Part shown: one piece after another, positions 21,171 to 42,005 of the stretch
How the letters are laid out: every line of letters starts with the position of its first letter
How positions within the stretch are numbered: position 1 is the first letter of the stretch
Assembly: GCA_046090525.1 (NCBI GenBank)
Contig: JBJTAA010000342.1
Coordinates: 1-42,005 of the forward strand
Length of the DNA stretch: 42,005 nucleotides
Direction of reading: 5' to 3'
Source of the DNA: Planctomycetota bacterium
GTDB taxonomy: Bacteria; Planctomycetota; Planctomycetia; Pirellulales; UBA1268
The notes under the pieces: generated by a model
What the model was told of the DNA's origin: nothing
The model's input: only the letters and a program-made list of their open reading frames with translations
The model's database searches: none
Made by a program: the position numbers and the translations under genes

Positions 21171-22120
21171 GACGAGATTCGGCGCGCGGCCTGCACGGTC
21201 CGTCGCTTCTGCCAGCACCTGCCCAGCCCCGACCAAGCATCCCACTTCGCCCGGGCGAACGCACGTCCCCGGCCCCGGCAGCCGAGAATCACTCCTGTAA
21301 AGATAGATTGGGAAAGATGCGCAAGCAAAACCGGGGCTAAAAGCGGTCCCGGGGTGTCTTTGAGCACGGTCCAGGTGAGGTTCCTGTGGCCAAGGTAGGT
21401 CGCCAGGTTTCCCTCCGAACTCGCCCCGCCGATATGGGCGACCACGGCGTCGGGCACGTAGCGGGCGCGATGGCCGGCGAGCCGCAGGCGGTAGCCGAGG
21501 TCCACGTCTTCCCCGAAGCAGAAGTAGTCCTCGTCGAAGCCGCCCGCCTCGACCAGCGCGGCCCGCCGGTAGAGCGCGGCCGCCGCACAGGCGGAGAAGA
21601 TCTCGCGCGCCGCCAGATCGGCGGGCTCGAGCCGGCGGCCGTGTCCCTCGCGCCAGGCCAGGCCGCTGACGTGCCAGCGGTCACCGATCCCGTCGAGGAC
21701 GCCCTCGTAGCCGGCGAGCATCTGCCGCGAACCGAACGCGGCGCACTCGGGGTGAGCGGCGGCGGCGGCGACGAGGCACCCGAGCCAGCCCGGCTCGGGG
21801 AAGGCGTCGGGATTGAGCAGGGCCACGAAGTCGGTCGTGGCCATGGCGAGCCCCCGGTTCGAGGCCGCGGCGAACCCGAGGTTCCGCCCGGCTGCGTCGA
21901 ACGTCGTCCGGCCCACGAGGGCCGGCGTCGCACCAACGAGCGTCCGCGCGGCCGCGAGCGACTCGTCGCTGCTGGCGTTGTCGATGACGACGATCCGCTC
22001 GGGCAGCGACGACTGGCGGGCCAGGCACTCCAGGCACCGCGGCAGGTGCTCGCCGCCGTTGAAGTTGACGATCACGACGGTGACCGGGGCCGTGCCAGCC
22101 GGTTCGACGACCTCATTCAT
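21119..22120 (-). CDS. Glycosyltransferase family 2 (333 aa)
   Basis: VTVVIVNFNGGEHLPRCLECL, VVIDNASSD, FAAASNRG and the ED-containing FCFGEDVDLGYRL are present. The start was moved to ATG 22120. Confidence 0.85.
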   Translation of the reverse strand: MNEVVEPAGTAPVTVVIVNFNGGEHLPRCLECLARQSSLPERIVVIDNASSDESLAAARTLVGATPALVGRTTFDAAGRNLGFAAASNRGLAMATTDFVALLNPDAFPEPGWLGCLVAAAAAHPECAAFGSRQMLAGYEGVLDGIGDRWHVSGLAWREGHGRRLEPADLAAREIFSACAAAALYRRAALVEAGGFDEDYFCFGEDVDLGYRLRLAGHRARYVPDAVVAHIGGASSEGNLATYLGHRNLTWTVLKDTPGPLLAPVLLAHLSQSIFTGVILGCRGRGRAFARAKWDAWSGLGRCWQKRRTVQAARRISSWRILSAMDFGLTRRGR

Positions 22121-22139
22121 GAGGGGGTTCCCCGCGCGC

Positions 22140-22168
22140 TTGACGCTGCCCGCCGGCCGACCTAGGGT
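22140..22168 (+). promoter_or_regulatory. Candidate sigma70-type promoter for wzm-wzt
   Basis: TTGACG-N17-TAGGGT in the 166-bp divergent intergenic region. Confidence 0.3.
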
Positions 22169-22286
22169 CGAAAGGGGACATCCGCCGCTGCCTCCTGCGG
22201 CCCTCCCCGACAGCCCCCCCATCCCGAGCCGGAACACCGTGCCAGGCCTCGAAACCACCGCCCCGCCGCCACGGGAGATCGCGACG

Positions 22287-23096
22287 GTGAGGCAGGCGGG
22301 CGGAGACCCGGCTCCGGCCGACACGGCCTGGACCGATTGGTGGGCGGGCACGCGCCGCTTCGATCTCTGGAGCACGCTCGCCTGGTACGACATCGTGCTC
22401 CGGTATCGGCGGTCGATCATCGGTCCGCTGTGGATCACGCTCAGCATGGGAGCGATGCTGCTGGGCATGGGCCCCCTCTACGCCGCGCTGTTCGACGTGC
22501 CGCTGGCACGCTTCTACCCGCATCTGGCCCTCGGGATCATCTTCTGGAACTTCTTCAGCACGACGCTCAACGACGGCTGCCAGGTGTTCATCACCGCCGC
22601 CGCCTACCTCAAGCAGGGCCCGGTGCCACGGAGCGTGTTCGTGTGGCGGAGTCTGGCCCGCCACCTGTTCTTCCTCGCGCATCACGTCGTGCTCTATCTG
22701 CCCGTCGCCCTGTGGTCGGGCCTGGCCTGGAGCCCGCGGATGCTGCTGGCCATCCCGGGGCTGCTCGTGGTGATCGTCAATCTGCACGCCCTGTCGATCA
22801 CGCTGGGCCTGCTCTCGGCCCGCTTCCGGGACGTCCCCAACATCGTGTCGAGTTCGCTGCAACTGTTGATGTTTTTGACGCCGGTGTTCTGGTTCCCGGA
22901 GAAGCTGCCCGAGCGTTCGCGATTCATCCTCTACAACCCGCTCGCCCAGCTGCTCGACGTGCTGCGGGTGCCGCTCCTGGGCGGCCTGCCGGCGCCGGGC
23001 ACCCTGTGGTTCCTGGGCTACTTCACGACGCTCAACGTGGCCGTGGCGGCGTACCTCTACGCCACCTGCCGCCGCCGGGTCGTTTACTGGGTGTGA
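22287..23096 (+). CDS. wzm: ABC-2 type polysaccharide export permease (Wzm/TagG/KpsM-like), ~269 aa
   Basis: LAWYDIVLRYRRSIIGPLWITL is the ABC-2 N-terminal signature, followed by 6 TM helices. GTG 22287 was chosen. The upstream part of track ORF 21813..23096 is antisense to the GT2 gene. Confidence 0.85.
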   Translation: MRQAGGDPAPADTAWTDWWAGTRRFDLWSTLAWYDIVLRYRRSIIGPLWITLSMGAMLLGMGPLYAALFDVPLARFYPHLALGIIFWNFFSTTLNDGCQVFITAAAYLKQGPVPRSVFVWRSLARHLFFLAHHVVLYLPVALWSGLAWSPRMLLAIPGLLVVIVNLHALSITLGLLSARFRDVPNIVSSSLQLLMFLTPVFWFPEKLPERSRFILYNPLAQLLDVLRVPLLGGLPAPGTLWFLGYFTTLNVAVAAYLYATCRRRVVYWV

Positions 23097-23103
23097 CACG
23101 ACC

Positions 23104-23838
23104 ATGGCCCTGCTCGCCCTCGACGACGTGTCGGTCGATTACCCGATCTTCGGGGCCCACGCCGACTCGCTCAAGACCACGCTCACCAGCGCCGTCACCG
23201 GTGGGCGGATCGGCCGGGAAACGGGGGTGACCGTGGTGCAGGCGGTGCGGAACGTCTCGCTCGAGCTTCGGGACGGCGACCGGCTGGGCATCGTGGGGCA
23301 CAACGGCGCCGGCAAGTCCACGCTCTTGCAGACGCTCGCGGGCGTCTACCCGCCGACCCGCGGCCGCTACCGCCGCGAGGGCTCGCTGGCGAGCCTCGTC
23401 AACCCGATGCTCGGCATCGAGCGGGAGGCGACCGGCTACGAGAACATCATGATCCGCGGCCTCGTGCTGGGCATGAGCCGCCGGGCGATCCGGGCGATCA
23501 CGCCGGAGATCGCCGAGTTCAGCGGGCTGGGCGAGTATCTCGACATGCCGGTGCATACCTACTCCACCGGCATGCTGATGCGGCTGACCTTCGCGATCAC
23601 GACGAGCGTGCGGGCCGACATCCTCCTGATGGACGAGTGGCTTTCGGTGGGCGATGCCCAGTTCCGGCAGGTCGCCGAGCGGCGGATCCGCGAGATGGTC
23701 TCCCACAGCGGAATCCTCGTGATCGCATCACATTCGGCCGACCTCATCGCCCGCGAGTGCAACCGGGTGATCGAGCTGTCGCACGGGTCCGTGATCCGGG
23801 ACGAGCCGTTGGCTGAGTTCGTGCCGGAGGAACGCTAG
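23104..23838 (+). CDS. wzt: Polysaccharide export ABC transporter ATP-binding protein (Wzt/TagH/KpsT-like), 244 aa, NBD only
   Basis: Walker A GHNGAGKST, signature YSTGMLMRL and Walker B ILLMDEWLSVGD are present. At this length there is no C-terminal carbohydrate-binding extension. Confidence 0.93.
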   Translation: MALLALDDVSVDYPIFGAHADSLKTTLTSAVTGGRIGRETGVTVVQAVRNVSLELRDGDRLGIVGHNGAGKSTLLQTLAGVYPPTRGRYRREGSLASLVNPMLGIEREATGYENIMIRGLVLGMSRRAIRAITPEIAEFSGLGEYLDMPVHTYSTGMLMRLTFAITTSVRADILLMDEWLSVGDAQFRQVAERRIREMVSHSGILVIASHSADLIARECNRVIELSHGSVIRDEPLAEFVPEER

Positions 23839-25289
23839 CGGCGGCCCGACGACAGCGCCGCCTCGATGCGGCCGGTCATGTCCTGCCGCAGGGACTCGTG
23901 GATTGCCCGCTCCGCCACGAGCTGGGCGACCAGCTCGTCCCGCTCTCCCACCGCCGACGCGGCGGTTCGTTCGAGCTGTTCGCCTCGCGCTCGGGCCTCC
24001 GCCAGGTCCACCGCGAGCCGCTTGACCGCGACGTCGCGTTCGGTCCGCTCGGCCTCGAGTTGGGCGACGGCGCGGTCGGCACGTGATGCGGCTTCGGCGA
24101 GGGCCGACTCCAGTCCCGCCATGGCGCGGACTCGTTCGGCCCGCTCGGCCTCACGTTGCTCGACGGCCCGATGCCTTTCAGCCCGTTCGGCCTCGAGTTG
24201 CACGGCGAGACGGTCTCGTTCGGCCCACTCGGCCTCGAGTTGCATCGCGAGACGGTTTCGTTCGGCCCGCTCGGCCTCCAACTGCTTCTCGACCGCCGCC
24301 GCTCGGGCAGCGCAGGTGTCGGCGCGGTTGGTCGCAGCGAGCCGCTCGGCCCGCTCGGCCGCCAGTTCGCCGGCCAACTGCTCGACCTTCCGCTGCGCCT
24401 CGGCCTCCCGGACCGCGAAGCCGCCCCGCTCGGCGACGGCACGGCAGGCCGCGGCCCATTCGATCAGGGCGGCCGCGGCGACTTCCGTCGGCCGTGAGAG
24501 CCCGCGGCCGAGAGCCACCGGTGCCGCCGGTGCCGCCGGGGCGGCAAGCCGCAGGATCTCGGCCTGGAGATCACGCACCTCCGGCCTCAGGGCGATCACG
24601 ATTCCCTCGCGGTGGCCCGGTTGTCCGGTCACGAGCAGCCCGGGCTCGTACGTGGCCGCGGGCGTGGCGAGAGGCACGGCGAGCAGTTCTGCCGCGCGCG
24701 ATACGACGCCGGCTGGATCGGTGACGACCTGCGACAGATCCACGACGATCGTGCGGTCGCCGTGTCGACGGGCGAAGTCGAGGATCCTGCGGTTGTAGGC
24801 AACCCAGACGTCCACCGCGTGCCGCGGATTGACGACGAACGCGGTGTCGCCCCGGCGCAGCAGCGAGTCGCACACCTCTGCGGGCGGCCGCACCACGAAC
24901 AGCCAGCGGGCCTCGGGCACGAGTTCGGCCCAGAAGTCGAGAAACAGGGTCGTCCGCGGGTCCTTCCAGCCCCATGGGCGGCCCGCCGCCCGGCGGCGGC
25001 GCACCATGTCGGCCGCCTGCGCCCGTGCCGCTGCCGGCACCTCGATGGCCTCCTGGCAGGTGAAGCCCTCCATCGACAGGCCGTTGCCTGCGAGGATCCG
25101 CTGATGCAGGTTGTAGAACTCGAGGTCCTCGAAGTGGCCCCGCGGATTGCCCGCCGCGGCCGGCATCAACTCGTCACCCAGATGGACCCCCGCCGTGGCG
25201 AGCAGCGAAGCCGTCAGCGACGTGCCTGACCGGTGCATGCCGGTGATCACGAGAGCCGGCGGGCGATCGGCATCGAGCGGCTCTGCCAT
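23835..25289 (-). CDS. Sulfotransferase-domain protein with ~180-aa C-terminal repetitive coiled coil (484 aa)
   Basis: The N-terminal PAPS-loop-like motif is VITGMHRSGTSLTASLL, followed by NPRGHFED. The C-terminus is heptad-like and Ala/Glu/Arg-rich, with QLEAERAER units. The start was moved to ATG 25289. Confidence 0.8.
   Translation of the reverse strand: MAEPLDADRPPALVITGMHRSGTSLTASLLATAGVHLGDELMPAAAGNPRGHFEDLEFYNLHQRILAGNGLSMEGFTCQEAIEVPAAARAQAADMVRRRRAAGRPWGWKDPRTTLFLDFWAELVPEARWLFVVRPPAEVCDSLLRRGDTAFVVNPRHAVDVWVAYNRRILDFARRHGDRTIVVDLSQVVTDPAGVVSRAAELLAVPLATPAATYEPGLLVTGQPGHREGIVIALRPEVRDLQAEILRLAAPAAPAAPVALGRGLSRPTEVAAAALIEWAAACRAVAERGGFAVREAEAQRKVEQLAGELAAERAERLAATNRADTCAARAAAVEKQLEAERAERNRLAMQLEAEWAERDRLAVQLEAERAERHRAVEQREAERAERVRAMAGLESALAEAASRADRAVAQLEAERTERDVAVKRLAVDLAEARARGEQLERTAASAVGERDELVAQLVAERAIHESLRQDMTGRIEAALSSGRR
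24117..24284 (-). repeat. Four tandem 42-bp (14-aa) coding repeats inside the coiled coil
   Basis: The units are QLEAERAERNRLAM / QLEAEWAERDRLAV / QLEAERAERHRAVE / QREAERAERVRAMA. A fifth dispersed unit, QLEAERTERDVAVK, lies downstream. Confidence 0.85.
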
Positions 25290-25526: not shown

Positions 25527-28500
25527 ATGCCGGACCAAGAGCAGCCCGACCTGCGCCGCTACTTTGATCGGCGCTGGTATGTCGCCACCTACGGCGCGGG
25601 AAGGCGGCGGATCCGCTGGTGGCCATGGCACTACTACCGCCGCCGCGGCTGGCGAAAGGGCCATGCTCCCTGTCAGCTCTTCGATGCGGCGTGGTACCTC
25701 GACCGGAATCCCGACGTGCGGGCCGCCGGTCTCGACCCGCTCGCGCACTACGCCGGGCATGGCTGGCGCGAGGGGCGTCAACCACACCCGCTCTTCGATC
25801 CGTCGTGGTATGCCGCGCGCTACGCCGATGTCGGAGCCGCCGGCGTCGAGCCGCTGTTGCACTATCTCACCGTCGGCTGGCGGGAGGGCCGGCAGCCCCA
25901 TCCGGCCTTCGATGCAGCCGGCTACCTGGAGGCGAACCCCGACGTGGCGGCCGCCGGACTCGAGCCGCTGGCCCACTATCTCGCCTACGGTTGGCGGGAG
26001 GGTCGCCAGCCGCATCCCTTGTTCGACGGCGGCTGGTACATCGACCGCAATCCCGACGTCGCGCTCGCGGGGCTCGAGCCGCTCACGCATTTTCTGGGCA
26101 CTGGCTGGCGGGAACGGCGGGAGCCCTGCCCGTCGTTCTCGCTGGCCGCGTACGTGGCCGCCCGGCCCCGGCCGCTCGACGCGGGTGTGAATCCGTTCGT
26201 CCACTTTCTCGTCACCGAATACGACCCGGGCGATCGCGAGTCCCGAGCCGCCGTGGCGGCCCGCTACGCATCGGCCGCCCGACCGGCCGCCGTGGCGGCT
26301 GCCGCGCCGGCCGTCGGGCCGGCCAACCGCGGGCACGTGCGGGCGATCGCGATGTACCTGCCGCAGTTCCACCGCGTGCCGGAAAACGACGCCTGGTGGG
26401 GGGAGGGATTCACCGAGTGGACCAACGTCCGGCGGGCCCGCCCCATGTTTTCCGGCCACCAGCAGCCTCACGTGCCGCATCGCGACGTCGGCTACTACGA
26501 CCTGGACGACGAGACGGTGCTCGAGCGGCAGGCCGAGATGGCCCGCCGCCACGGCATCCATGGGTTCTGCTTCTATCACTATTGGTTTGACGGTCGCCGC
26601 ATCCTCGAGAAGCCGGTCGAAAGGCTGCTGGCGAGTGGCCGGCCCGACTTCCCCTTCTGCCTCTGTTGGGCCAACGAGAACTGGACGCGGACGTGGGACG
26701 GGCTCGAACGCGAGGTGCTCCTCGGGCAGCGGCACTCGCCCGACAGTGACGAGCGGTTTCTGCGCGACCTGCTGCCGGCCCTGCGCGACCCGCGGTACAT
26801 CACGGTCGAGGGGCTGCCGCTCGTGGCCGTCTACCGGCCGGGGCTGCTCGCCGAGCCCAGGGCCACCGCCGACCGCTGGCGGCAGATCGCCGAGCGGGAG
26901 GGCCTGCCGGGGCTGCACTTGGCCGCCGTGCACTCCTTCGACCAAGCCGACCCACGCACGTACGGCTTCGACGCGGCGATCCAGTTTCCCCCGCTCCAGA
27001 TTCCCGCGGCGAACCTGCGCGAGACGGGCCTCGCCGGCATGGACCGGCGGTTTCGGGGCGGGGTGCTCGATTACCGCGAGGCGCTCTGTCATTCGCTCGC
27101 CCGGCCGACGCCCGACTATCCGCTCTACCGGGGCGTGATGCCCGGCTGGGACAACACGCCGCGCCGGATGGAGCGGGCCACGGCCTGGGTCAACTCGTCG
27201 CCTGGTCTGTACGGCCGCTGGCTGCGGGGCGTCGTCGAGCAGATGCAGCGGGAGCAGCCGGCCGAACGGCAGCTCGTGTTCATCAACGCCTGGAACGAAT
27301 GGGCCGAGGGCGCCCACCTCGAGCCGGACGAGCGGCACGGCTACGCGATCCTCGAGGAGACGGCGGCGGTGCTCCTCCCCCAGCCGGCCGGAGCCCAGGT
27401 CGCCGCCGCGGCGGCGACCGCGCTGCCACGGGCCCGGGACCGCCATCCGACGGTCGTCGGTCACCGCCGGGCACGCCTGCGCACCCTGTTTGGCGGCGAC
27501 GTGCCCGAGGCCAGTCATGCCTTCCTGCTCGACCATGTCGCGGCGGTCGCCCGGCTGGCCGCGACCGGTCATCGGCTGACGCTCTGCGACGGCGTGCCCG
27601 TCTGCCAGGGCGACACCGAAACGATCCCTCTCGACGATCCCGCGGCGCTCTCCGCCAGCCTGCTCGCAGCGGATCGCGCCGGTGAACGCCCCTTCTGTTT
27701 CGTGCTGCTGCAGTTCAACCAGCCGGAGGTCACGGCCCGCTGCGTCGCCTCGCTGCGGCGGCTCTCCACGGTCACTCGCCGGGTGCACGTGGTGATCGTG
27801 GACAACGGCTCCGAGCCGGCGACGGTGGCCCGCACGCGGGAGTTGTTCACGGGCCTGGCCGACGTGACGCTCCTGTTCACCGGTGCGAACCTCGGGTTCG
27901 CCAAGGGCAACAACGTCGGCTACGCGCACGCCCGCGATGTCCTCGTGGCCGATTTCATCGCCGTCATCAACAACGACACGGTCGTCGGCGATCCCGCCTT
28001 CGTGGAGCGCTGCCTGGACGCGTTCCGGGAACGCCCCTGGTCGGTGCTCGGGCCCGATATCGTCACGCCCGACGGTCGGCACGAGAACCCGTGGAACGAC
28101 CATGTCTACGAGGCCGGCGAGTGGGAGGCGCTCGAAGACCTGTTCCGCCGGCAGCGGGCCGCCTGGCAGGCGGGCGGCCCGGCGGAGTTTCGCCGGCTCG
28201 GCTCCCGCAGTCCCGACGCGCCGACGCTCTGCGATCCGATCCTGCAGGGGGCGGCCTACGTCTTCTCACCCGTGTTCACCGCCGAACATGCGCGGGCCTT
28301 CGACGAGCGCACGTTTCTCTACGGCGAGGAGTTCCTGCTCGCGGTCGACTGTCTGCTCGCCGGGCACCTCGCCGTCTACGACCCACGGATCACGATCGTC
28401 CACGAGGAGGGCGTCTCCACCGCACGCGTGCCCGAGCGGCGGAAGCTCGCCCTCGGATACGACGCGGTCGTCGAGACGGCGGCGATCTGCCGGACGCGCC

Positions 28501-29855
28501 TCGAGCGACACGAAGCGGCCGCCCGCGGCATGTGGCTCACGCCCGACTCCCCCGCCCTCGCGGTCCTCACGGGAGACGGCCGGACCCATGTCCTCGTGGA
28601 TCTCCTGTTCTGCCAGCCCGGCTTCCACGGGGGCGGCGAGTACGGCAAGGCCGTGTTCAACGCCCTGGTCGCCGCGGCCGCGAGGCGCGGCGACGTGCAG
28701 CTCTGGGTCGCGCTCGATCCCAAGCTCTTCATCGACGGCTGGGTGTGGGAGGCGTGCCGCGAGCATGCGGTCAACGTCGTCGCCGTCACGTCGTACGCCG
28801 AGATCACGCGGCTCGTGAATCGGGGCCTGTTCGGCTCGTTTTTCGCGCCGGCGATCGTCGTCTACACGGGTTACGAGTACCAGCAGCGGATCGGGGGCGA
28901 GCTCGGCTTGGCCTCCGGGCCGACGCGGGTGATCGGCACGCTGCTCGACGTGCGCGACCTGGAGATGGCGCGGGATTGGGAGCGGATCGCGACGGCCCGC
29001 CGCGAGGCGGGCTGCCGCCACGAGCGGTCGCTCTCCCCGGCCGCATGGCAGGCCACACGGGAGCGGCAGCAGGCCCAGGCCCGTGACCTGCTGGGGATGT
29101 ATCGCGGCATCTGTGGCCACGCCGCCGTCGACACGCTGGTGACGATCTCCGCCTACTCGGCCGCGTCGCTCCGGGAACGGGTCGGCACCAGTCGGCCCGT
29201 CGAGGTGCTCTTCCCGCCGGCCAAGAATCGGACGGCTCCCGAAGCCTTCGGGGTGCCGGGGGTCGAGGCGGGTCGCGACCAGTTCGGCCTGGTGGTGAAT
29301 GCCGGCCGGATCGAGAAGAACGCCGCCACGGCGGTGGCCGCCTTCGACCGCCTCTGCTCCGATCCGGGCTTCGCGGCGGAGCATCCACGGCTGAAACTCG
29401 TGCTCACCGGGATCGACGGCCTCGACGGTCTCGGCCTCGAGCCGCTCGCCAATCCCGCCCGGTTCGTGGCCCTGCCGCATCTGCCGCCGGAACGGCTCGA
29501 ATACCTCTATCGCGAGGCGCGATTCCTGCTCTACCCGTCGTTCAACGAGGGTTTTGGATACCCGCCGCTCGAGGCGATGACCTACGGCACCCCGAGTGTC
29601 GTCGCCGACAACACGGCAGTGCCCGAGGTCTTGGGCCCCGCGGCGATCCCCTGCGACCCGTTCGCCCCCGCGTCGGTCATGCAGGCGATCCGCACCGTTC
29701 TGGCCGCCCCGCCCACCGCGGCGGAACTCCACGACCAGCTCGCGACCGTGGCCGGCCGACAGGATGCCGACTTGGCGCGGCTCGTCGCGCTCGTCTGCGG
29801 CCCGGTCCCGGCCCTGGAACCCGTGGGCGCCACCCGGTCGCTGCTAGCCGCATGA
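25527..29855 (+). CDS. Giant multidomain glycosyltransferase (1442 aa): N-terminal 38-aa repeats, then WbsX-like domain, GT2 domain and GT4/GT1 domain
   Basis: AGGAGG lies 9 nt upstream of ATG 25527. The WbsX-type motif is IAMYLPQFHRVPENDAWWGEGFTEWTNV. GT2 motifs are FCFVLLQFNQPEVTARCVASL, VVIVDNGSEP and FAKGNNVG. The C-terminal GT4 motif is EGFGYPPLEAMTYGTPSVV. Confidence 0.9.
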   Translation: MPDQEQPDLRRYFDRRWYVATYGAGRRRIRWWPWHYYRRRGWRKGHAPCQLFDAAWYLDRNPDVRAAGLDPLAHYAGHGWREGRQPHPLFDPSWYAARYADVGAAGVEPLLHYLTVGWREGRQPHPAFDAAGYLEANPDVAAAGLEPLAHYLAYGWREGRQPHPLFDGGWYIDRNPDVALAGLEPLTHFLGTGWRERREPCPSFSLAAYVAARPRPLDAGVNPFVHFLVTEYDPGDRESRAAVAARYASAARPAAVAAAAPAVGPANRGHVRAIAMYLPQFHRVPENDAWWGEGFTEWTNVRRARPMFSGHQQPHVPHRDVGYYDLDDETVLERQAEMARRHGIHGFCFYHYWFDGRRILEKPVERLLASGRPDFPFCLCWANENWTRTWDGLEREVLLGQRHSPDSDERFLRDLLPALRDPRYITVEGLPLVAVYRPGLLAEPRATADRWRQIAEREGLPGLHLAAVHSFDQADPRTYGFDAAIQFPPLQIPAANLRETGLAGMDRRFRGGVLDYREALCHSLARPTPDYPLYRGVMPGWDNTPRRMERATAWVNSSPGLYGRWLRGVVEQMQREQPAERQLVFINAWNEWAEGAHLEPDERHGYAILEETAAVLLPQPAGAQVAAAAATALPRARDRHPTVVGHRRARLRTLFGGDVPEASHAFLLDHVAAVARLAATGHRLTLCDGVPVCQGDTETIPLDDPAALSASLLAADRAGERPFCFVLLQFNQPEVTARCVASLRRLSTVTRRVHVVIVDNGSEPATVARTRELFTGLADVTLLFTGANLGFAKGNNVGYAHARDVLVADFIAVINNDTVVGDPAFVERCLDAFRERPWSVLGPDIVTPDGRHENPWNDHVYEAGEWEALEDLFRRQRAAWQAGGPAEFRRLGSRSPDAPTLCDPILQGAAYVFSPVFTAEHARAFDERTFLYGEEFLLAVDCLLAGHLAVYDPRITIVHEEGVSTARVPERRKLALGYDAVVETAAICRTRLERHEAAARGMWLTPDSPALAVLTGDGRTHVLVDLLFCQPGFHGGGEYGKAVFNALVAAAARRGDVQLWVALDPKLFIDGWVWEACREHAVNVVAVTSYAEITRLVNRGLFGSFFAPAIVVYTGYEYQQRIGGELGLASGPTRVIGTLLDVRDLEMARDWERIATARREAGCRHERSLSPAAWQATRERQQAQARDLLGMYRGICGHAAVDTLVTISAYSAASLRERVGTSRPVEVLFPPAKNRTAPEAFGVPGVEAGRDQFGLVVNAGRIEKNAATAVAAFDRLCSDPGFAAEHPRLKLVLTGIDGLDGLGLEPLANPARFVALPHLPPERLEYLYREARFLLYPSFNEGFGYPPLEAMTYGTPSVVADNTAVPEVLGPAAIPCDPFAPASVMQAIRTVLAAPPTAAELHDQLATVAGRQDADLARLVALVCGPVPALEPVGATRSLLAA
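25680..26135 (+). repeat. Four well-conserved tandem 114-bp (38-aa) coding repeats (degenerate copies flank them, ~25563-26249)
   Basis: The unit is FDxxWYxxxNPDVxAAGxEPLxHYxxxGWREGRQPHPx, read four times in register in the translation. Confidence 0.85.
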
Positions 29856-30706: not shown

Positions 30707-30714
30707 GGTCAGCC

Positions 30715-32876: not shown

Positions 32877-34372
32877 CGCGCCTCCCTGCTCGGTGTCGGC
32901 TCCGCCTCAGGACCGCGGTCCTCCTGGCCGCGGTGCCGACCGATCATGGTACCGGCGCGGGCGAAACCGTGAACGGTTGCGGCTGCAAGGGCTGCCAGGG
33001 CGAGCGGCTGCGCTGGAAAGGCGTAGCGGTCCTCCGAGGCGAGCATCGCCGCGTGGCCCAGCAGGTAGGCCAGCGGGATCACCGCGACCACGATGAGCCG
33101 CACGTCGCGGCGAAACAGGCCCGTGATCCCGACGCCGACGAGGGCGAGGCAGCCGGCGGGCACGAGCCAACGGTCGAACAGGGGTGCCAGCCGCCAGAGC
33201 GTCGCCGACAAGAGCCCCGGGCCTGTCGGCTGAGTGAAGCTGGCTCGCGTCCGTTCGGTGAGCCGCGCCAGTCCGTCATCGATCCGGTTGTGGCCCACGT
33301 CGAGCGCCGGACCGAACGCCGCGTGCTCGGACGACCCGTTGGTGCTCTGGGCCGCCGGGAAACCGGCGAACAGGAGCAGCGTGCGGCCCACGCCCGCGGC
33401 GTAGCGATCGGGATGCTCGGCCGCCAGTCGCCCGAACGTGGCGCCGGGGGGGTCGAGCCGCGGATAGAGCGACGTGGCCAACTCTCCGATCTGTCCGGCC
33501 CGCAGCCCGGAGACGAGGCCGTCGTCCTGCCACGCTTCGTCGATCGCATGCGCGTAGGCATCGGTGGCGGCGCCCAACAACGGGGCGCCGGGGGGAATGA
33601 GAGCCTGGCGCACGATCCCCTGCTTGAGCATGTAACTGCGAATGTTCCGCGACGGGGCGTATGGCTCCCAGAGCATGGACGTGGCGAGCGGCACGATGAA
33701 GATGGCCGCCGCCTGGAGGGCGACCAGCCAGCCGGGGCGGGCGGGCCGCCGCAGGCCGTCGCGCCAGGCCGTGCCCGGTGGACAGCAGGCCCCGACCGCG
33801 AACAGGATCGCCGCCGCCGGAACGACGAACTGGAGCGACTGCCGATGGTAATAGCCCGCGGCGAGCACTCCGGCGAGCAAGCCCGCCTTCCACCAGCCAT
33901 CGCGGTCGGATCGATCCGTCATGACCAGAACGGCGGCCACCAGCGTGAGCCACGCTGCGGCACCGCTTTCGGTCAGGGCGTGGTGCTGATAGGCCACCGA
34001 GAGAGGGAAGACGGCCACGGTCAGGAGGGCGACCGCCGCGGCGACCGGGCCGGCGAGCAGGCGGGTGACACGGGTCACCGCGAGGAGCATCAGCCACGCG
34101 AATGCGGCGTTGACGCCCACGATCGCCAGCGGCTGCCGGCCCACGACCGCGAAGGCGACCTTGAGGACGAGCGGGTAGCCCGGCGTGCGAATCGGCGGCT
34201 GCCAGTCGTCGGGAAAACGGTCGGAGAACAGGACGCCTGCGAAGTCGATGTATTCATGGCCGTCATAGGGAACGACCAGCGGCAGGGCCAGCACGTGAAG
34301 CAGCGTGAAGCCGGCCGCGGCGGCCAGGCATCGCCGCAGCAGCCTCGAGTCAGCGACCTCCGAGCGATCCAC
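32873..34372 (-). CDS. ArnT/PMT-like (GT39/GT83-type, GT-C fold) membrane glycosyltransferase (499 aa)
   Basis: The first loop contains HEYIDF...RTPGYPLVLKVAFAVVG, typical of ArnT/PMT_2-like enzymes. More than 10 TM helices are present. The start is GTG. Confidence 0.7.
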   Translation of the reverse strand: MDRSEVADSRLLRRCLAAAAGFTLLHVLALPLVVPYDGHEYIDFAGVLFSDRFPDDWQPPIRTPGYPLVLKVAFAVVGRQPLAIVGVNAAFAWLMLLAVTRVTRLLAGPVAAAVALLTVAVFPLSVAYQHHALTESGAAAWLTLVAAVLVMTDRSDRDGWWKAGLLAGVLAAGYYHRQSLQFVVPAAAILFAVGACCPPGTAWRDGLRRPARPGWLVALQAAAIFIVPLATSMLWEPYAPSRNIRSYMLKQGIVRQALIPPGAPLLGAATDAYAHAIDEAWQDDGLVSGLRAGQIGELATSLYPRLDPPGATFGRLAAEHPDRYAAGVGRTLLLFAGFPAAQSTNGSSEHAAFGPALDVGHNRIDDGLARLTERTRASFTQPTGPGLLSATLWRLAPLFDRWLVPAGCLALVGVGITGLFRRDVRLIVVAVIPLAYLLGHAAMLASEDRYAFPAQPLALAALAAATVHGFARAGTMIGRHRGQEDRGPEAEPTPSREAR

Positions 34373-36324: not shown

Positions 36325-36333
36325 CCGGGCGGG

Positions 36334-37590
36334 CTACCGCGCGAGGCGCCGCAGCACCCCCGCCACGCCCTCGGTCCGCAGCACCTCCCAGGCGCGGCGG
36401 GCGATGCGGCTGCGGTAGCCCGGTTCGGCGACGGCGCGGGTGAGCACGCCCCGCAGGCCGGCGCGCGGCGATCCGGCAGCGCCGCCGCGGAACCCCGGAG
36501 ACAGCCGGGCGAAGAGCGATTGCAGCCCATCGGCCACGGTCGCCTCGTCGAACAGGATCGGATACTCGATCCGCCCCTGGGACTCCCACCAGCGTTTGAA
36601 GCCGCCGGCTTGGAACGGATCTGGAAAGGCCGCCTGCAGGTCGACGCGCTCGCGGTACACGATCCGCGCAGCGGCGGGCACCGGGGTGCCGTCCGAGAAA
36701 CTGCCGAACGCCCAGGGCGCCTGCGACAGCGGGTCGCGGCCGAAGTCCGCGATCGCGGCGGCGTACCAGGTGATCAGGCCCTGCACCGCGGGCTGGTCTG
36801 CAGCGTGCTTCCAGGCCATCTCCCGATGGGCCCCGGAATCGAAGCCGGTGAAGTGGTAGAAGCCCAGCGGTTCGCCGTCCACGAGCACGTCGCCGGGGGC
36901 GCTGCCCGTCACCCGTCGTCGTGAAACGTTCCACGAGGCCACGTTGAGGCGGCTCGAGCGGAGAATGCAGGTGCCGGGGAAGAACGCGGGCACGAGATCG
37001 ATCCAGCGCTGGTCCGTGAACAGGCCATGCGGGATCGCATCACGGCAGAAGTGGTAGCAGCGATCGGCCCACCAGGCGGCGAAGTCACGGCCCGTGTCGG
37101 TGGCGGCCACGGCGAGGAACCCCAGATTGTAGATGCCGTGCTTGAGGGAGGCGATCTCGTTGTCCATCACCCCCTCGAGGCTCTCGTCGGGAACGGTGAG
37201 GTGGGGCGTGAGGGCCACGTTCGCGGCGGCCAACGCCTCGTCCACCTCGACCAGCGGCGAGAAGAGCACCGTGTCGGGGTCGAGGTAGACGACGCCCCGG
37301 CAGTCGGGGCGAGCGAGCAGCTGCCTCAGCAGAAAAGGCTTGATGGCCGTCGCGAGCTCCACGATCCGGTGGCAGAAGGCCCAGCCGCGGTGGTCCGGGA
37401 TGTCGAGTGCCGCGAGCGGATGGACTTCGTCGAATCCTTCACGACTCAGATCGATCCCCGCCGGCATCTCGTCGGCCAGCGCGAGATGGATTCGCCAGTC
37501 CGGTTGGTGGCGGCGGATCGAGGCCACCAGGGCCCTCACCTTGGGCACGTAGTTGCAGGCGGCGCTCGTGAAGACGTGGATCGTGCTCAC
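36334..37590 (-). CDS. GT-A fold glycosyltransferase, GT8-like (418 aa)
   Basis: The N-terminus is IHVFTSAACNYVPKVRALVASI, the DxD motif is VVYLDPDTVLFSP, and TDQRWIDL is present. The GTG start overlaps the upstream stop (GTGA). Confidence 0.7.
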   Translation of the reverse strand: MSTIHVFTSAACNYVPKVRALVASIRRHQPDWRIHLALADEMPAGIDLSREGFDEVHPLAALDIPDHRGWAFCHRIVELATAIKPFLLRQLLARPDCRGVVYLDPDTVLFSPLVEVDEALAAANVALTPHLTVPDESLEGVMDNEIASLKHGIYNLGFLAVAATDTGRDFAAWWADRCYHFCRDAIPHGLFTDQRWIDLVPAFFPGTCILRSSRLNVASWNVSRRRVTGSAPGDVLVDGEPLGFYHFTGFDSGAHREMAWKHAADQPAVQGLITWYAAAIADFGRDPLSQAPWAFGSFSDGTPVPAAARIVYRERVDLQAAFPDPFQAGGFKRWWESQGRIEYPILFDEATVADGLQSLFARLSPGFRGGAAGSPRAGLRGVLTRAVAEPGYRSRIARRAWEVLRTEGVAGVLRRLAR

Positions 37591-39197
37591 GCGGGGGCTC
37601 CGAGGCGTTGATCTGCGAGGTCGGCGGCGAAGGCGAGAAGCTCGGCGAGCAGGCCAGGGCCGTCGCTCCGGGGCGACACACGGCCGAGCGGATGACCGCG
37701 GGCGAGGTCCGCCGGCGCGCCGAGATCGAGCGTCATCAGGGGGAGGCCCATCGCCAGCGTCTCATGGGCCACGAAGGAGAACGTTTCCGGGCAGATCGAG
37801 GGGAGCAGGACGAGATGGACGCCATGCCGCTCGACGAGTCCCGGCAGTTCCGCGGGGCGATAGGCGCCCGTCTCGCTCACGATCTCACGCGGACAGGGGG
37901 CGTCGAGATGGCCGATGACGACGATTCGCACCGGCTTGCCGGCCGCCTCGATCGCCCGCGCCAGGTCGGCGACCACGCCGGCTCCCTTGTGGTGCGAGAT
38001 CGCCCCGATCACGCCGACGACGAGCGGGTCGCCGGGCACGGGGGCCGAGCGGCGGACCCGGCGGAGCGGCGCCACGTCGTGCGGCACTACGGTCGCCCGC
38101 GGGCCGACTGCGGGATAGGCCCGTGTCAGCAGTCTCCGCGACGAGTCGGAGAAGCAGCGAATCTCGTCGGCGGCCTCGAGCAGTCCTCCCCAGACCCGCC
38201 TCCACTCGTCGATCGACGTGCAGCCGGCCAGCGACACGAAGCCGTCCTCGTGCTTCGGCAGGCAGGCCCGACAGCGGTCGAGATCGGGCACCCCGCAGAA
38301 GCTGCCGCGGTCGTCGAGGAGGAAGGCCGCCGGGCAAACGGTGAAGTAGTCGTGGATCAAGACCTCGAGCCGGACGCCGCGCCGACGGGCGCTGTCGCGC
38401 AGGAAGCGGCCCAGGTCGAGCGGCCTCGGGAAGGAGACGCCGCAGTTGTAGACGACCCGCATGAGGCGGCCGCCGGCGAGCGCGGCGGCGAGCGCATCGA
38501 GGTCCGCGACGGCGAAGCCGCGGGGTGGACGGCCAGCCTCGTGCACCTCGGCCCGCAGCGAGAGCGACGAGACGACGAACGTCAGGAGCACGACGGTGGC
38601 GTCGCCGGCGAGCGCGTCGGCGACCAACCGGTCGCGATGGGCGTTGGCACCACCTCCCATGGCATGATCGACCACGAGGGTGAGGGAGCGGCCCCGGATC
38701 GCGGTCGTCAGTTCGCTTTCCGGCATGGTCGCGATGGCGGCACGGGAGCGATGCCGGAAGTCACGGAGTTTGCCGAGCAGGGCCCGCAGGCGGCCCTGGC
38801 GGAGGTGGATCCAGCCGCGGCGCAGGAGATAGGACCAGCCCACGCCGGCCGGTTGCCGCGGGGCGTCGGTGGGTGGTAGGGCGAGCGGCACGATCTCCCG
38901 GCCGCCGTCGGTCAAGTCGAACTCGATCGCCGCCGAGCGGGGCGGAGCGGCGGGCCAGCCGGCCAGAACCAAGAAGCCCGCATTGACCGCATGTGGATTG
39001 TGGGGAAATGCGGCGGCCACGTCTTCCCGGGCCCGGTCGATCGAGATGGCCACGCGCCGTGACGAGCCATCGGGAAAGTCGAGCACCAGTCGGGCGGTGG
39101 CGACTCTGCAGCGGGGCGGCACGGCCCAGCCGAAACCGAACAGGGCGTCGTCGCGGACCGCGAGATGGTCGAGTTGGCAGAGGAACGCGTCGCTCAT
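37587..39197 (-). CDS. Glycosyltransferase family 4/1 with N-terminal beta-rich accessory domain (536 aa)
   Basis: The C-terminal E-x7-E motif is CPETFSFVAHETLAMGLPLM. The N-terminus FGFGWAVPP...DRAREDVAAAF...AGF resembles the C-terminal domain of ORF 34480..36324. Its ATG overlaps the upstream stop (ATGA). Confidence 0.8.
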   Translation of the reverse strand: MSDAFLCQLDHLAVRDDALFGFGWAVPPRCRVATARLVLDFPDGSSRRVAISIDRAREDVAAAFPHNPHAVNAGFLVLAGWPAAPPRSAAIEFDLTDGGREIVPLALPPTDAPRQPAGVGWSYLLRRGWIHLRQGRLRALLGKLRDFRHRSRAAIATMPESELTTAIRGRSLTLVVDHAMGGGANAHRDRLVADALAGDATVVLLTFVVSSLSLRAEVHEAGRPPRGFAVADLDALAAALAGGRLMRVVYNCGVSFPRPLDLGRFLRDSARRRGVRLEVLIHDYFTVCPAAFLLDDRGSFCGVPDLDRCRACLPKHEDGFVSLAGCTSIDEWRRVWGGLLEAADEIRCFSDSSRRLLTRAYPAVGPRATVVPHDVAPLRRVRRSAPVPGDPLVVGVIGAISHHKGAGVVADLARAIEAAGKPVRIVVIGHLDAPCPREIVSETGAYRPAELPGLVERHGVHLVLLPSICPETFSFVAHETLAMGLPLMTLDLGAPADLARGHPLGRVSPRSDGPGLLAELLAFAADLADQRLGAPA

Positions 39198-41563
39198 CCG
39201 AAACGGTCCTCGGCTGCGGGTGGAAGCCTGCCCGGGAAGGCTTCGAGTTGGCGGGTGAGTTCCTCGATTCGGGAAAGCCGAGCGCGGGCCAGATCCTCGG
39301 TGGCCGCCAGGGCGGCGGCCGTCGCGTGCAACTGCCTGTCGAGCGCTTCGAGTGCCGAGAGCCGCTCGATCGCGAGCCGCTCGGCCTCGCCGTGCGCCGC
39401 TGTGGCGGCGCGAAGCTGCCCGTCCAGGGCTTCGATCTCTGCCAGCCGGGCGGTGGCCAGGCTTTCAGCGGCGGACTGGGCGTGTGACAGGCGGGTGATG
39501 TCGGTCAGCCGCTCCTCGGCGAGCCGGCGGGCCTCGGCGAGGGCGGCGTCGAGTCGGTCATTGTGGACGAGCCGTTCGTGGGCCACGCGGGTGGCCTCAC
39601 CGAGGGCGTTGTCGAGCGTGGCGATGTGCTCGAGCCGTTCGTCGGCGAGCCGGCGGGCCTCGGCGAGGGCGGCGTCGAGTCGGTCATTGTGGTCGAGTCG
39701 TTCGTGGGCCAGCCGCTGGGCGTCTGCGAGTGCCGTCGTGAGCCTGCCGGCCTCCGTCTCGCGCTCGCGGACGATCCGCTGGGCCTCCCCCAGGGCCGCA
39801 TCGAGCCGGGCCAGTTCGAGACGCAGTGCGTCGGCGGCGGCGATCCGCCCGGCGTCGCTCCGCCTGAGTTCGACGAACACGCGGTGCAGTTCTGCGGGGC
39901 CCCGGCAGGCGACCCGCGCCGCCGCGATGACGTCGCGGGCCGCCGCGAGCAGGTCGTCGTGGCGAAACCGGGCGATCGTCGTGTCGTAGGCGGGGTACTT
40001 GCGGCGCAGAACCTCTCCGGCCCGCCGCTGGAGCGCCTCAGTCTCCGCCAGGAAACTCACCCGTCCGTGATGCAACACGAACACGTCGGCGGCGAGGACG
40101 TTGCGCCAGCCACGGGCGACGGCCCGCAGGCTGAAGTCGTTCTCCTCGCCGTATCCCCGCCCGAAGAGCAGTTCGTCGAAAAAGCCGACATCCTCGAGGC
40201 AGTCGCGGCGCAGATACATGCAGAAACCAACGGCCGTGGGGATGTCCACGATCCACCCGGCGTTGGCCTCGCGAAACAAGGCGTCGAGCGCTGCAGCCGT
40301 CCAGCCGGAAGGGAGTTCGTTGTCGGTGAACGGGACCGGATAACTCGCCAACGTGGCGTTGTTCGAGAACGGGGTCACGGTGCCCACGAAGTCACCGTCC
40401 GCGGCCGCCCGCAGCCGCTCGAGCCAGCCTGGCGGCACGACCGTGTCGGCGTTGAGCAGCACCACGTCGCGGTCCGGGTGGAGCCTCATGCCACGGTTGG
40501 CCGCAGCCACGAAGCCGAGGTTCGATTCATGCTCGAGAAGCGTAAACTCGCCCCGGCCGGCCCGGTGCCGCAGCGCCGCGGCGAGTTCGGGCTCCGGTGT
40601 GGCATCGTCGATCACCACCAACTCGAAGTCGCCGCCGCCAGCGAGCACGGAATCGATGCAGGCGAACGTCGCCTCGCGTCCGCGGTGAACCGGCACGACC
40701 ACGTCGACCGGCGCCGTCCGGCGCCGCGAGTTTCGCCGTGCCGTCACGAGTTCCTCGAGGCCGGCGGCGATGATCGTGAGTTCGTCGCCGACGGCGGCGT
40801 CGCCGGCGGCGAGTCGTTCGAGGCAGGCGTGGCAGCGGGCGGCCAGCCGGCCTGCGGGTGTCTCTAGCCGCGGGTCATCGGCCTTGGCCTGGTGATGGAG
40901 GAGGTCGGCCGCGACGAACGCGTCGATCGCCCGACGGGCGTCGGCGGCCAGCGGAGCGTCCTCACCCAGCCAGGCGCGGAGTTCCGTCACGAACCCGAGG
41001 CCATCCTGGATCAGCCGCCGCAGGGGCGTGACGAGCAACCTGTCTCCCAGGAGGGGCCGCACCGCCTCGAGGTTGTGGTACAGCCACAACAGCAGTGCCT
41101 GCTCGGCGGGCATCTGGTTGCGGATTGCGAGCGAGTCGGCGACCTCGAGGGGATGGCGAAACACGTGCAGGAAGCGCGACTCGGCTCCGATCGCCGCCGC
41201 GGCGCGTTCCCAGAAGGGCCAGAGCCGGCAGAGCCGGGGATCCTTGATGCCCCACAGCGGAGAATCGGAGAAGTCGCGGGCGAGCGTCTCGGTGGCCTGT
41301 TCGGCGAGCAGGCCCAAACGCGGATGCATGAGCCAATCGGCCGGCAGCGGGGTGGGCACGTGCCAGGCGAGCGAGAGCGCTGTGAGCAGCCGTTCGTCGA
41401 TCGCGAGCACATCGCGATGCTCCCAGAAGCCGCGCGGGTTCTCGATCTCCTCTCCCACCATCAGGTTGCGGCCGAGATCGACGCCGGCCAAGCGCGCGAG
41501 CCCCGCGGCCAACGAGGTGCCGCTGCGGTGCATGCCCAGGATGAACAGGGCCCGGCCAGGCAT
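39194..41563 (-). CDS. Trifunctional-looking protein (789 aa): sulfotransferase domain, GT2 domain and C-terminal repetitive coiled coil
   Basis: The sulfotransferase motifs are FILGMHRSGTSLAAGLA and ENPRGFWEH, paralogous to 23835..25289. GT2 motifs are VDVVVPVHRGREATFACIDSVL, VVIDDATPEP and LNADTVV. The last ~250 aa are Ala/Leu/Arg/Glu-rich with 21-aa periodicity. The start was moved to ATG 41563. Confidence 0.85.
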   Translation of the reverse strand: MPGRALFILGMHRSGTSLAAGLARLAGVDLGRNLMVGEEIENPRGFWEHRDVLAIDERLLTALSLAWHVPTPLPADWLMHPRLGLLAEQATETLARDFSDSPLWGIKDPRLCRLWPFWERAAAAIGAESRFLHVFRHPLEVADSLAIRNQMPAEQALLLWLYHNLEAVRPLLGDRLLVTPLRRLIQDGLGFVTELRAWLGEDAPLAADARRAIDAFVAADLLHHQAKADDPRLETPAGRLAARCHACLERLAAGDAAVGDELTIIAAGLEELVTARRNSRRRTAPVDVVVPVHRGREATFACIDSVLAGGGDFELVVIDDATPEPELAAALRHRAGRGEFTLLEHESNLGFVAAANRGMRLHPDRDVVLLNADTVVPPGWLERLRAAADGDFVGTVTPFSNNATLASYPVPFTDNELPSGWTAAALDALFREANAGWIVDIPTAVGFCMYLRRDCLEDVGFFDELLFGRGYGEENDFSLRAVARGWRNVLAADVFVLHHGRVSFLAETEALQRRAGEVLRRKYPAYDTTIARFRHDDLLAAARDVIAAARVACRGPAELHRVFVELRRSDAGRIAAADALRLELARLDAALGEAQRIVRERETEAGRLTTALADAQRLAHERLDHNDRLDAALAEARRLADERLEHIATLDNALGEATRVAHERLVHNDRLDAALAEARRLAEERLTDITRLSHAQSAAESLATARLAEIEALDGQLRAATAAHGEAERLAIERLSALEALDRQLHATAAALAATEDLARARLSRIEELTRQLEAFPGRLPPAAEDRFG
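39516..39692 (-). repeat. 126-bp (42-aa) direct coding repeat in the coiled coil
   Basis: A 51-nt block (39516-39566) is identical to 39642-39692, and similarity extends ~20 nt further. The protein units are AHERL(D/V)HNDRLDAALAEARRLA(D/E)ERL.... Confidence 0.85.
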
Positions 41564-41706
41564 CGAGAGAGGGCCCGCCGCGAGGGGCGGGATCACAAGG
41601 GGCGACGTGCACGGGCGACCACCGCTCGGGGGCCCGCAAGGAAAGCCTACCTCGCGGATTTCACCGCTGCGGCACGGGGGTTGCCGGCCCGCTGCGGTCC
41701 CCGGGT

Positions 41707-42005
41707 TCACCGGGCCGGAAACAGCGGCGCTGCCGCGTCACGCGGCGACAGGACCGGCTCGGCCGTGAGCGGCCAACGAATCGCGAGCGTCGGGTCGTCC
41801 CAGCGGATGCACTTCTCACAGCCGGGCGCATAGAACGCAGTCGTCTTGTAGAGCACCTCGGCGGTGGCGGAGAGCACGAGGAACCCGTGGGCCAGCCCCT
41901 CGGGCACCCACAGCTGGCGCCGGTTTTCCGCCGACAACTCGACCCCCACCCAGCGGCTGAAGGTCGGCGACCCGGGGCGGATGTCCGCGGCCACGTCGAA
42001 GATCG
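41707..42005 (-). CDS. rfbC: dTDP-4-dehydrorhamnose 3,5-epimerase, C-terminal part (5' end beyond window)
   Basis: ...VAADIRPGSPTFSRWVGVELSAENRRQLWVPEGLAHGFLVLSATAEVLYKTTAFYAP...IRWDDP matches the RmlC cupin core. The reading frame stays open to the window edge. Confidence 0.93.
   Translation of the reverse strand, partial: IFDVAADIRPGSPTFSRWVGVELSAENRRQLWVPEGLAHGFLVLSATAEVLYKTTAFYAPGCEKCIRWDDPTLAIRWPLTAEPVLSPRDAAAPLFPAR

Follow-up and report, generated by a model that had tools for sequence, protein, structure and literature searches.

The stretch of DNA examined here, referred to as the window, comprises 42,005 nucleotides of contig JBJTAA010000342.1 from a Planctomycetota bacterium of the order Pirellulales and has a G+C content of 71%. 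On its minus strand, at 39194..41563, lies a gene for a 789-residue protein that joins a sulfotransferase-fold (ST) domain, a family 2 glycosyltransferase (GT2) domain, and a coiled coil built from repeats, and that probably helps to build and cap a surface polysaccharide. An earlier note on this DNA had placed the three modules within one chain and the gene within a glycan cluster dependent on an ABC transporter; it was correct on both counts, genes for the transporter proteins Wzm and Wzt being present in the window. The open reading frame (ORF) extends from an ATG at 41563 to a stop codon at 39194-39196. A longer version starting from a GTG at 41710 is possible; the ATG was adopted because all 14 aligned orthologues begin at the equivalent position (M-x-x-R-x-L-F-I-L-G-M-H-R-S-G-T-S). 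The layout described below was derived from this ORF, the orthologue alignment, and an AlphaFold2 (AF2) model of the whole protein with a mean predicted local distance difference test score (pLDDT) of 81.4. Every motif quoted in the note was located: GMHRSGTS at amino acids (aa) 10-17, NPRG at aa 42-45, VVPVHRG at aa 289-295, VVIDDATPEP at aa 316-325, and NADTVV at aa 371-376. A scan of positions 36000-42005 for promoters and terminators performed no better than chance.

The ST domain occupies aa 1-255 (40799..41563; this and all other features of the protein are on the minus strand). Family models did not detect it above threshold, the best Pfam match being PF13469, with an E value of 0.063 and 14 bits against a cut-off of 27, and an NCBIfam scan giving no usable match for the N terminus. 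As Pfam misses this region, the assignment was based instead on a paralogue, on a search with a family profile, and on a modeled structure, and the low Pfam score reflects the sensitivity limit of the model and is not evidence against homology. The paralogue, a 484-aa protein encoded at 23835..25289 on the minus strand, consists of a stand-alone sulfotransferase with a helical spacer and matches PF13469 with an E value of 2.5e-11 and 44.7 bits. The relationship, which the earlier note had claimed from shared motifs, is real: BLASTP aligned aa 5-193 with the paralogue at 32% identity (E, 2e-18). When aa 1-275 were used in a HMMER scan of 1.84 billion representative proteins, the ST-domain family comprised 18,932 clusters at an E value of ≤0.001 and 1,052 clusters at ≤1e-30. 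A sample of 57 family members was chosen so as to include 28 long chains, and 29 of them had a PF13469 match at an E value of ≤0.001. A profile built from 20 family domains was searched against the PDB; all 35 matches were sulfotransferases, and the best was the olefin-synthase (OLS) ST 4gox (2.8e-5), aligned across the 3′-phosphate-binding (3′-PB) motif. When the model of the entire protein was submitted to Foldseek, all matches were GT-A enzymes; hence, the ST domain was modeled alone. The model of aa 1-280 had a pLDDT of 93.6, and its first 33 Foldseek matches were all sulfotransferases, with E values of 1e-5 to 7e-3 and template modeling (TM) scores of 0.4 to 0.5. These included 4gox and 4gbm (OLS/CurM ST), TPST1/2, Stf9, Stf1, SULTs, and 3-OST.

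Both motifs for binding of 3′-phosphoadenosine 5′-phosphosulfate (PAPS) were identified. The loop for 5′-phosphosulfate binding (5′-PSB) is GMHRSGTS (41513..41536), which is unchanged across 15 orthologues and 57 distant relatives and is modeled as a strand (aa 4-9), a loop, and a helix (aa 13-25). The 3′-PB motif, RHPLEVADS at aa 136-144 (41132..41158), was recognized from its invariant R136, P138, and S144 and from the profile match to 4gox. Residues H12, R13, S14, G15, T16, S17, N42, and G45, together with E48, K107, P109, R136, P138, S144, and R148, were invariant in this protein, the paralogue, and 55 distant relatives. The catalytic residues of TPST2 are R78, E99, and K158 (PMC10951654), and the spacing of R13, E48, and K107 resembles that of these residues, a mapping inferred from spacing. 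The concern that the N-terminal domain might be a pseudo-enzyme was not borne out: judged by its sequence it is not one, since neither the two PAPS-binding motifs nor E48 and K107, the candidate catalytic residues, vary among orthologues and distant relatives.

A helical linker at aa 256-282 (40718..40798), modeled as a helix over aa 256-280 and too short to act as a spacer, leads directly into the GT2 domain at aa 283-555 (39899..40717). That this domain is real, as the earlier note held, was indicated by PF00535, which matched aa 288-459 above the Pfam cut-off (1e-14; 55.3 bits versus 23.3). The region has the GT-A fold, with a pLDDT mostly above 90, and Foldseek matched it to the GT-A enzymes GalNAc-T2, WrtF, and RmlT (E, 8e-11 to 5e-9). 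Its acidic motifs are D319-D320, N371-A-D373-T, and G470-Y-G-E-E-N-D476, of which D320, N371, D373, T374, E473, E474, and D476 are invariant in orthologues. By these features the domain is an intact inverting GT-A glycosyltransferase. The adjoining genes for dTDP-rhamnose synthesis (rml), which are the sole basis for the assignment, suggest that its donor is dTDP-L-rhamnose.

The remainder of the protein is a coiled coil (aa 556-775; 39239..39898). The hydrophobicity spectrum of aa 576-775 had its dominant peak at exactly 3.50 residues, not 3.6, and the power of this peak (139.8) was not reached by any of 1000 shuffles (10.4 ± 10.2). Proline is absent from aa 561-775, and AF2 predicted helices at aa 556-650 and 658-774. 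Identity autocorrelation over aa 561-789 exhibited peaks at lags of 21 (0.31) and 42 (0.35) over a background of ∼0.1, and stacking resolved seven tandem repeats of 21 aa, each of three heptads, at aa 587-733 (39365..39805). Thus, the 21-aa periodicity and the coiled coil reported in the earlier note both held; the coil is, however, ∼220 aa in length instead of ∼250 aa. A helical hairpin, prompted by the break in the AF2 model at aa 646-664, was considered and set aside: the pLDDT there was 41 to 52 in a monomer model, and the arrangement is also disfavored because single 21-aa steps would shift each arm by 1.5 heptads.

Among orthologues, the two enzyme domains are retained, as are the final ∼60 coil residues, while the number of repeats in the middle varies. 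The coil end carries the block ERLxxxEALDRQLxxTAAALAxxEDLARxRLxxIExLTRQ, within which R734 and L741 are invariant, and this conserved end with its tail (aa 726-789; 39194..39388) is a candidate docking site, a role that we infer from the orthologue alignment. To the eye, the acidic tail does not resemble an amphipathic membrane helix. Measured from a fixed anchor in GT2, the C-terminal regions of 15 orthologues were 127, 169, 180, 191, 197, 217, 218, 235 (the window protein), 238, 309, 336, 336, 336, 357, and 378 aa long. Exact 21-aa steps separate 197 from 218, 217 from 238, and 336 from 357 and then 378; at ∼0.15 nm per residue, one such repeat corresponds to ∼3 nm.

Relatives are designated below by L numbers for fetched loci and P numbers for homologous proteins. 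The full ST-GT2-coil layout is shared by ∼20 clusters at 35 to 58% identity; the named relatives are metagenome-assembled genomes (MAGs) of planctomycetes, with a Pirellulales MAG as the nearest species representative (47%; L005). Two more distant homologues with the same order were examined, P0021 and P0023 (loci L003 and L085). For the wider family, coils were detected as proline-free 56-residue windows with strong 3.5-residue periodicity, a procedure for which 1 of 30 shuffled controls was positive. A coil-like segment of ≥70 aa was present in 24 of the 57 sampled proteins, mostly no more than ∼100 aa from where the ST domain ends; a GT2 domain was found in 21 and GT4-type domains were found in 15 of the same sample. 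Pfam analysis of eight large relatives revealed five with the order ST-coil-GT2-GT4 and one each with ST-coil-GT2-GT2, ST-coil-GT4, and ST-coil, with ST at approximately 1-260, the coil at approximately 290-530, and the GT modules thereafter. Relative to the usual orders, ST-coil or ST-coil-GT2-GT4, the ST-GT2-coil order of the window protein is permuted. The logic of the Klebsiella ruler WbbB (terminator, coil, and polymerase in one chain), to which the earlier note had likened it, therefore fits the family, in which ST-coil-GT2-GT4 chains are numerous, but not this chain, in which GT2 lies between ST and the coil. Since GT2 is on the ST side, the coil cannot hold the sulfotransferase away from its own GT2. 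Other arrangements also occur: P0046 and P0032 have ST and GT2 fused with GT4 and a short or absent coil, and in the cultured Sulfuricella sp. T08 (L039; 9977-13307) an ST protein of 345 aa and a GT2-containing protein of 733 aa are encoded by separate neighboring ORFs.

Many ST-coil proteins, including P0021, P0022, P0023, P0125, P0150, P0195, P0203, and others, have an S-x-S-W-R/K-x-T-x-P motif, often followed by L-R, exactly at the end of the coil, which places it either at the C terminus or just ahead of the GT modules. Close orthologues of the window protein carry L-T-R-Q-V-E-V-F-T-A-G-L instead. The former motif may serve in docking or membrane attachment. One locus, L055, from a MAG titled Klebsiella pneumoniae, was considered as a link between GT2 and the O7 ORF6 protein of that species and was dropped, as its dense overlapping ORFs look high in G+C and the entry is probably misbinned or mislabeled.

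The gene is the first of a trio. The stop codon is overlapped by the start of a gene for a 536-aa partner (37587..39197, minus strand), which has an N-terminal domain of unassigned fold and a GT4-like domain with weak GT1/GT4 Pfam matches; a PDB sequence search with this partner gave nothing useful. Further copies of its N-terminal domain were suspected in other window proteins, such as at the C terminus of orf614, and BLASTP and phmmer found none. The 536-aa gene is in turn overlapped by a gene for a 418-aa protein (36334..37590, minus strand), the best conserved of the three (76% identity with its counterpart in L004), for which no Pfam, NCBIfam, or PDB match was obtained. By eye, the N terminus of the 418-aa protein (IHVFTSAACNY ... 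YLDPDTV) resembles a GT-A/GT8-type nucleotide-sugar transferase. Directly upstream of the trio is rmlC, encoding dTDP-4-dehydrorhamnose 3,5-epimerase (41707..41994, minus strand; PF00908, 8e-36), which is cut by the window end, and the trio (the gene under study, the GT4-like gene, and a gene for ∼420 aa) also comes after dTDP-rhamnose genes in L001, L002, L004, and L005. P0119 is a single chain in which ST-coil is followed by a match to aa 23-132 of the 536-aa partner, a GT2, and a match to the GT4 domain of the partner (40% identity). This fusion indicates that the same modules work together elsewhere and that the two genes in the window are a split, permuted version of such a chain.

The paralogue belongs to a second module. 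Its partner is a 1442-aa WbsX-GT2-GT4 protein, identified with Pfam and encoded at 25527..29855 on the plus strand, and a protein of this type also adjoins orthologues of the paralogue in L086 and L087. The paralogue has more than 50 orthologue clusters, in which the head and a C-terminal block are conserved and the middle varies from 122 to 265 aa; 11 of the 19 distinct lengths of this middle fall in two series of 14-aa steps. The spacer (aa ∼295-484) is free of proline and rich in E, R, and A, with identity peaks at lags of 14, 28, and 42. The heptad detector did not flag it and no clean 3.5-residue hydrophobic periodicity was found in it; hence, it is termed a helical spacer, as a coiled coil is not proven. 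Either one stable helix or a coil of atypical kind may be present.

Comparison of loci separated the two modules. Synteny between L002 and the window takes in the rml genes, the trio, a gene for a membrane protein of ∼600 aa, PMT_2, wzt, wzm, and two GT2 genes; L002 lacks the paralogue, the 1442-aa WbsX-GT2-GT4 protein, a methyltransferase, orf260, and orf471. Compared with L002, the window thus has an inserted block at 23835-31437 (the paralogue, the 1442-aa gene, the methyltransferase gene, orf260, and possibly orf471). Conversely, the gene order of L087 matches that of the window from 14 to 31 kb, with the paralogue's orthologue, a 1447-aa GT, methyltransferases, Wzt, Wzm, two GT2 genes, a Wzy_C-TPR gene, hisI, and a BamB-like gene, and no trio of the first type was found within 10 kb on either side. 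L086 has nothing beyond the paralogue, its 1442-aa GT partner, and a gene for ∼250 aa, between rmlC and hisI; a sulfatase gene (14537-15946) lies a few kilobases from the paralogue's orthologue at this locus. Each module, A (the trio) and B (the paralogue and its partner), therefore occurs alone in related genomes, and the window combines both around a single Wzm/Wzt transporter. The suggestion in the earlier note that two such proteins could mean two polymers thereby gained real support.

The transporter genes are at 21813..23838 on the plus strand (PF01061 and PF00005). Wzt (23104-23838) is 244 aa long, its nucleotide-binding domain spans the entire ORF, and its stop codon overlaps that of the convergent paralogue gene. 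Among 11 loci with both an ST protein and a Wzt, 5 (L003, L012, L024, L039, and L085) had a Wzt with an extension of 174 to 225 aa, annotated as Wzt_C in L003 and L085, and the other 6 had none. The P0021 and P0023 homologues immediately follow Wzm and a Wzt that bears Wzt_C, the cap-binding module, with stand-alone sulfotransferases in between, and are the only proteins at their loci with a coil-like segment of >130 aa. Of 29 loci without ST that were fetched via the GT2 domain, ∼24 had a Wzt ORF with a long C-terminal extension. The transporter evidence on capping cuts both ways.

Other genes in the window comprise two GT2 genes (20136-22468), a Wzy_C-TPR ligase-like gene, a gene for a PMT_2-type membrane GT, and genes for two multi-span membrane proteins. 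The last two (34480-36324, plus strand, and 31461-32876, minus strand) have seven to eight predicted membrane spans each and no family match, and both adjoin the PMT_2-type gene (32873-34372). The multi-span proteins, the PMT_2-type GT, and the two small GT2s could be periplasmic glycan-decorating systems dependent on polyprenol-linked sugars. The Wzy_C (O-antigen ligase family) protein has C-terminal TPR repeats, lies at the cluster edge (17228-19162, minus strand), and is kept in L087; lipid A-core or a protein could be the acceptor to which it ligates the glycan. The window showed no gene for PAPS synthesis.

Our preferred reading, which we hold tentatively and at somewhat less than even confidence, is that the window protein is a scaffold and sulfating chain-capping subunit with a coil that gauges distance between subunits. 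It would be a soluble cytoplasmic three-module subunit of a Wzm/Wzt-dependent glycan assembly line. The coil would oligomerize the protein, and its conserved end would dock the cotranslated 536-aa partner and possibly also the 418-aa protein. GT2 would act in chain building, probably with dTDP-L-rhamnose, and the sulfotransferase would sulfate the sugar at the nonreducing end, so blocking further extension. Given the ST-GT2-coil order, a ruler would have to act between subunits, and the coil would set the distance between catalytic sites on different subunits and not within one chain. One possible geometry is an antiparallel coil in which a chain grown on one head receives its cap from the head at the opposite end; no glycan ruler is known to have such a between-subunit arrangement. 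The paralogue would play the equivalent part with the 1442-aa WbsX-GT2-GT4 protein as a second polymerase, and the products of the cluster would be two glycans, or one two-domain glycan, exported by one transporter. It is a more doubtful proposition that sulfation is an undescribed chain-stopping chemistry in thousands of ST-coil proteins and that the two ST-spacer proteins of the window gauge their own polymerases while sharing a transporter devoid of a cap reader.

A number of observations weigh against sulfate capping by this protein. Only a 25-residue helix, and no coil, separates ST from GT2; the geometry of known rulers is thus absent, and premature capping of the product of the adjacent GT2 would be expected. 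The closest parallels of this GT2 include domains that in relatives are placed beyond the coil, with the polymerase modules (45 to 59% identity). The Wzt of the window lacks a C-terminal carbohydrate-binding module (CBM), as do those of L002 and L087, so that export is not visibly coupled to a cap. Length variation by repeat units could be due to neutral slippage. In the literature searched, a sulfated chain terminus or a sulfate-terminator system is undescribed. Finally, in the wb cluster of Aeromonas salmonicida, ORF19 ("Hyp"), which has a sulfotransferase domain and is situated between wzt and wbbB, has no assigned function, and the O-antigen structure shows no sulfate matching it (PMC4483657).

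Several of these observations would be accommodated by the main rival explanation, in which GT2 adds a sugar in each repeat unit, the adjacent ST sulfates that same sugar, and the coil only oligomerizes the protein and holds its GT4-like and 418-aa partners, measuring nothing; the polymer would then be sulfated all along the chain. We consider this explanation somewhat less likely than the preferred one, although it is the strongest of the alternatives. Hand-over of the same sugar is favored by the short ST-GT2 helix without a spacer, by the occurrence of ST and GT2 as adjacent separate genes (L039) or fused with GT4 with little or no coil (P0046 and P0032), and by the close relationship of this GT2 to polymerase-side modules. 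The lack of a CBM in the window's Wzt is likewise consistent with decoration, and the extra stand-alone sulfotransferases in L003 and L085 indicate that such clusters can sulfate more than one site. However, a decorating enzyme leaves unexplained why the coil is so long (∼220 aa here, with C-terminal regions of 127 to 378 aa in orthologues), why its end is conserved while its middle varies, why ST so frequently lies across a coil from GT modules in the wider family, and why distant relatives are paired with a CBM-bearing Wzt.

The coil could also be a neutral, slippage-prone oligomerization stalk, whatever the ST domain does, in which case the length differences would be meaningless. Several of these differences are indeed a single repeat (21 aa and, in part, 14 aa in the paralogue), as would arise from replication slippage. 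Against this, the repeats keep heptad phase (21 = 3 × 7, with a clean 3.50-residue periodicity) and are flanked by conserved blocks, two unrelated spacers with 21-aa and 14-aa units share the pattern of conserved head, variable middle, and conserved end, and in WbdD the length of the coil sets that of the chain (PMC11231755); we therefore regard a meaningless stalk as improbable. Least probable of all is an N-terminal domain that is a nucleotide-binding pseudo-enzyme or that acts on some acceptor other than a glycan, such as a lipid, protein, or small molecule. The Pfam score of 14 bits against 27, the TM scores of only 0.4 to 0.5 with solved sulfotransferases, the A. salmonicida gene without a matching O-antigen sulfate, and the failure to see a PAPS-synthesis gene in the window would fit such a domain. 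These are set against PAPS-binding motifs, E48, and K107 that are invariant in orthologues and distant relatives, the identification of all 35 PDB profile matches and the top 33 structural matches as sulfotransferases, and frequent fusion to GTs (GT2 in 21 of 57 and GT4-type in 15 of 57, in a sample enriched in long chains).

If sulfate capping is true, it would add a new chemistry to the methyl, methyl phosphate, and Kdo caps. As structural work can easily lose or miss a lone sulfate on each chain, a sulfate cap could explain orphan sulfotransferase genes, such as that in the A. salmonicida O-antigen cluster. The permuted order challenges the simple rule that a coil separates terminator from polymerase, and the window is a compact test case, with two ST-spacer proteins that differ in repeat unit (21 versus 14 aa) and have a polymerase apiece. 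The ST-domain family is very large (18,932 clusters). Planctomycetes are noted for their handling of sulfated polysaccharides, and these findings bear on how they build their own surface glycans. No sulfotransferase was found tied to WbdD, WbbB, or a glycan ruler in the literature searched, although an earlier mention is possible, and the same literature contained no experimental study of the ST-coil family in this role.

Among known enzymes, the closest in fold to the ST domain are the TPST, Stf, and OLS/CurM sulfotransferases (Sulfotransfer_3), which have the same G-x-x-R-S-G-T-S/T 5′-PSB and R-x7-S 3′-PB motifs. They differ in sequence (15 to 18% identity; TM, 0.4 to 0.5), the acceptor of the window protein is presumably a glycan, and its ST domain is fused to glycan-assembly modules. 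A functional parallel comes from mammals, in which HNK-1 sulfotransferase reportedly sulfates the terminal sugar of matriglycan and thereby stops LARGE1, a processive two-sugar polymerase. That system is eukaryotic and located in the Golgi, consists of separate proteins with no coiled-coil ruler, and is not homologous at the system level. ORF19 of A. salmonicida differs in being a stand-alone protein of 216 aa with no coil and no GT.

Known terminators add methyl, methyl phosphate, or β-Kdo, in addition to a pyruvate that does not regulate length (PMC11231755). In WbdD, the coil length determines the glycan chain length (PMC11231755); its C-terminal end is described as binding the membrane and recruiting the polymerase, and capping is described as occurring in two steps, by a kinase and then a methyltransferase (PMC11231755; PMC3482155). 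The window protein resembles WbdD of Escherichia coli O9a and K. pneumoniae O3 and O5 in having an N-terminal catalytic head, a long C-terminal coil, and a conserved end, and in belonging to an ABC-transporter pathway, and the paralogue copies the WbdD layout most closely. The differences are a head composed of sulfotransferase-fold and GT2 domains instead of a methyltransferase and kinase, with no sequence relationship, a tail that by eye is unlike an amphipathic membrane helix, and a Wzt without a CBM. In WbbB and the K. pneumoniae O7 ORF6 protein, the validated order is terminator-coil-polymerase, with the terminator across a coiled-coil ruler from the GT modules (PMC11231755). WbbB of K. 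pneumoniae O12 and Raoultella terrigena and O7 ORF6 share with the window protein a presumed terminator, a coil, and GT modules in one chain, and the GT2 modules of ORF6 use dTDP-rhamnose (PMC11231755), which fits the rml genes beside the gene studied here. In the window, however, the coil is not between terminator and GT within the chain, although it may separate the terminator from the GT4 domain of the partner, the second GT is a separate protein, and the chemistry would be that of sulfate and not of β-Kdo or methyl phosphate. The catalytic heads of known terminators are methyltransferases/kinases or Kdo transferases of GT99 or GT137, and the head of the window protein matched no methyltransferase or kinase family. 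Two features of the ruler family, an extended coiled coil and an ABC-transporter-dependent glycan cluster, were found; because in-chain separation, a CBM on Wzt, and a homologous head were not, the protein should not be filed as a member of the WbdD/WbbB group. Its relatives P0125, P0150, P0195, and P0119 match the terminator-coil-GT-GT order of WbbB and ORF6 exactly, and, if the capping role that we favor is correct, the window protein would be a sulfate-using, domain-permuted counterpart of the WbdD, WbbB, and ORF6 (O7) terminator-rulers.

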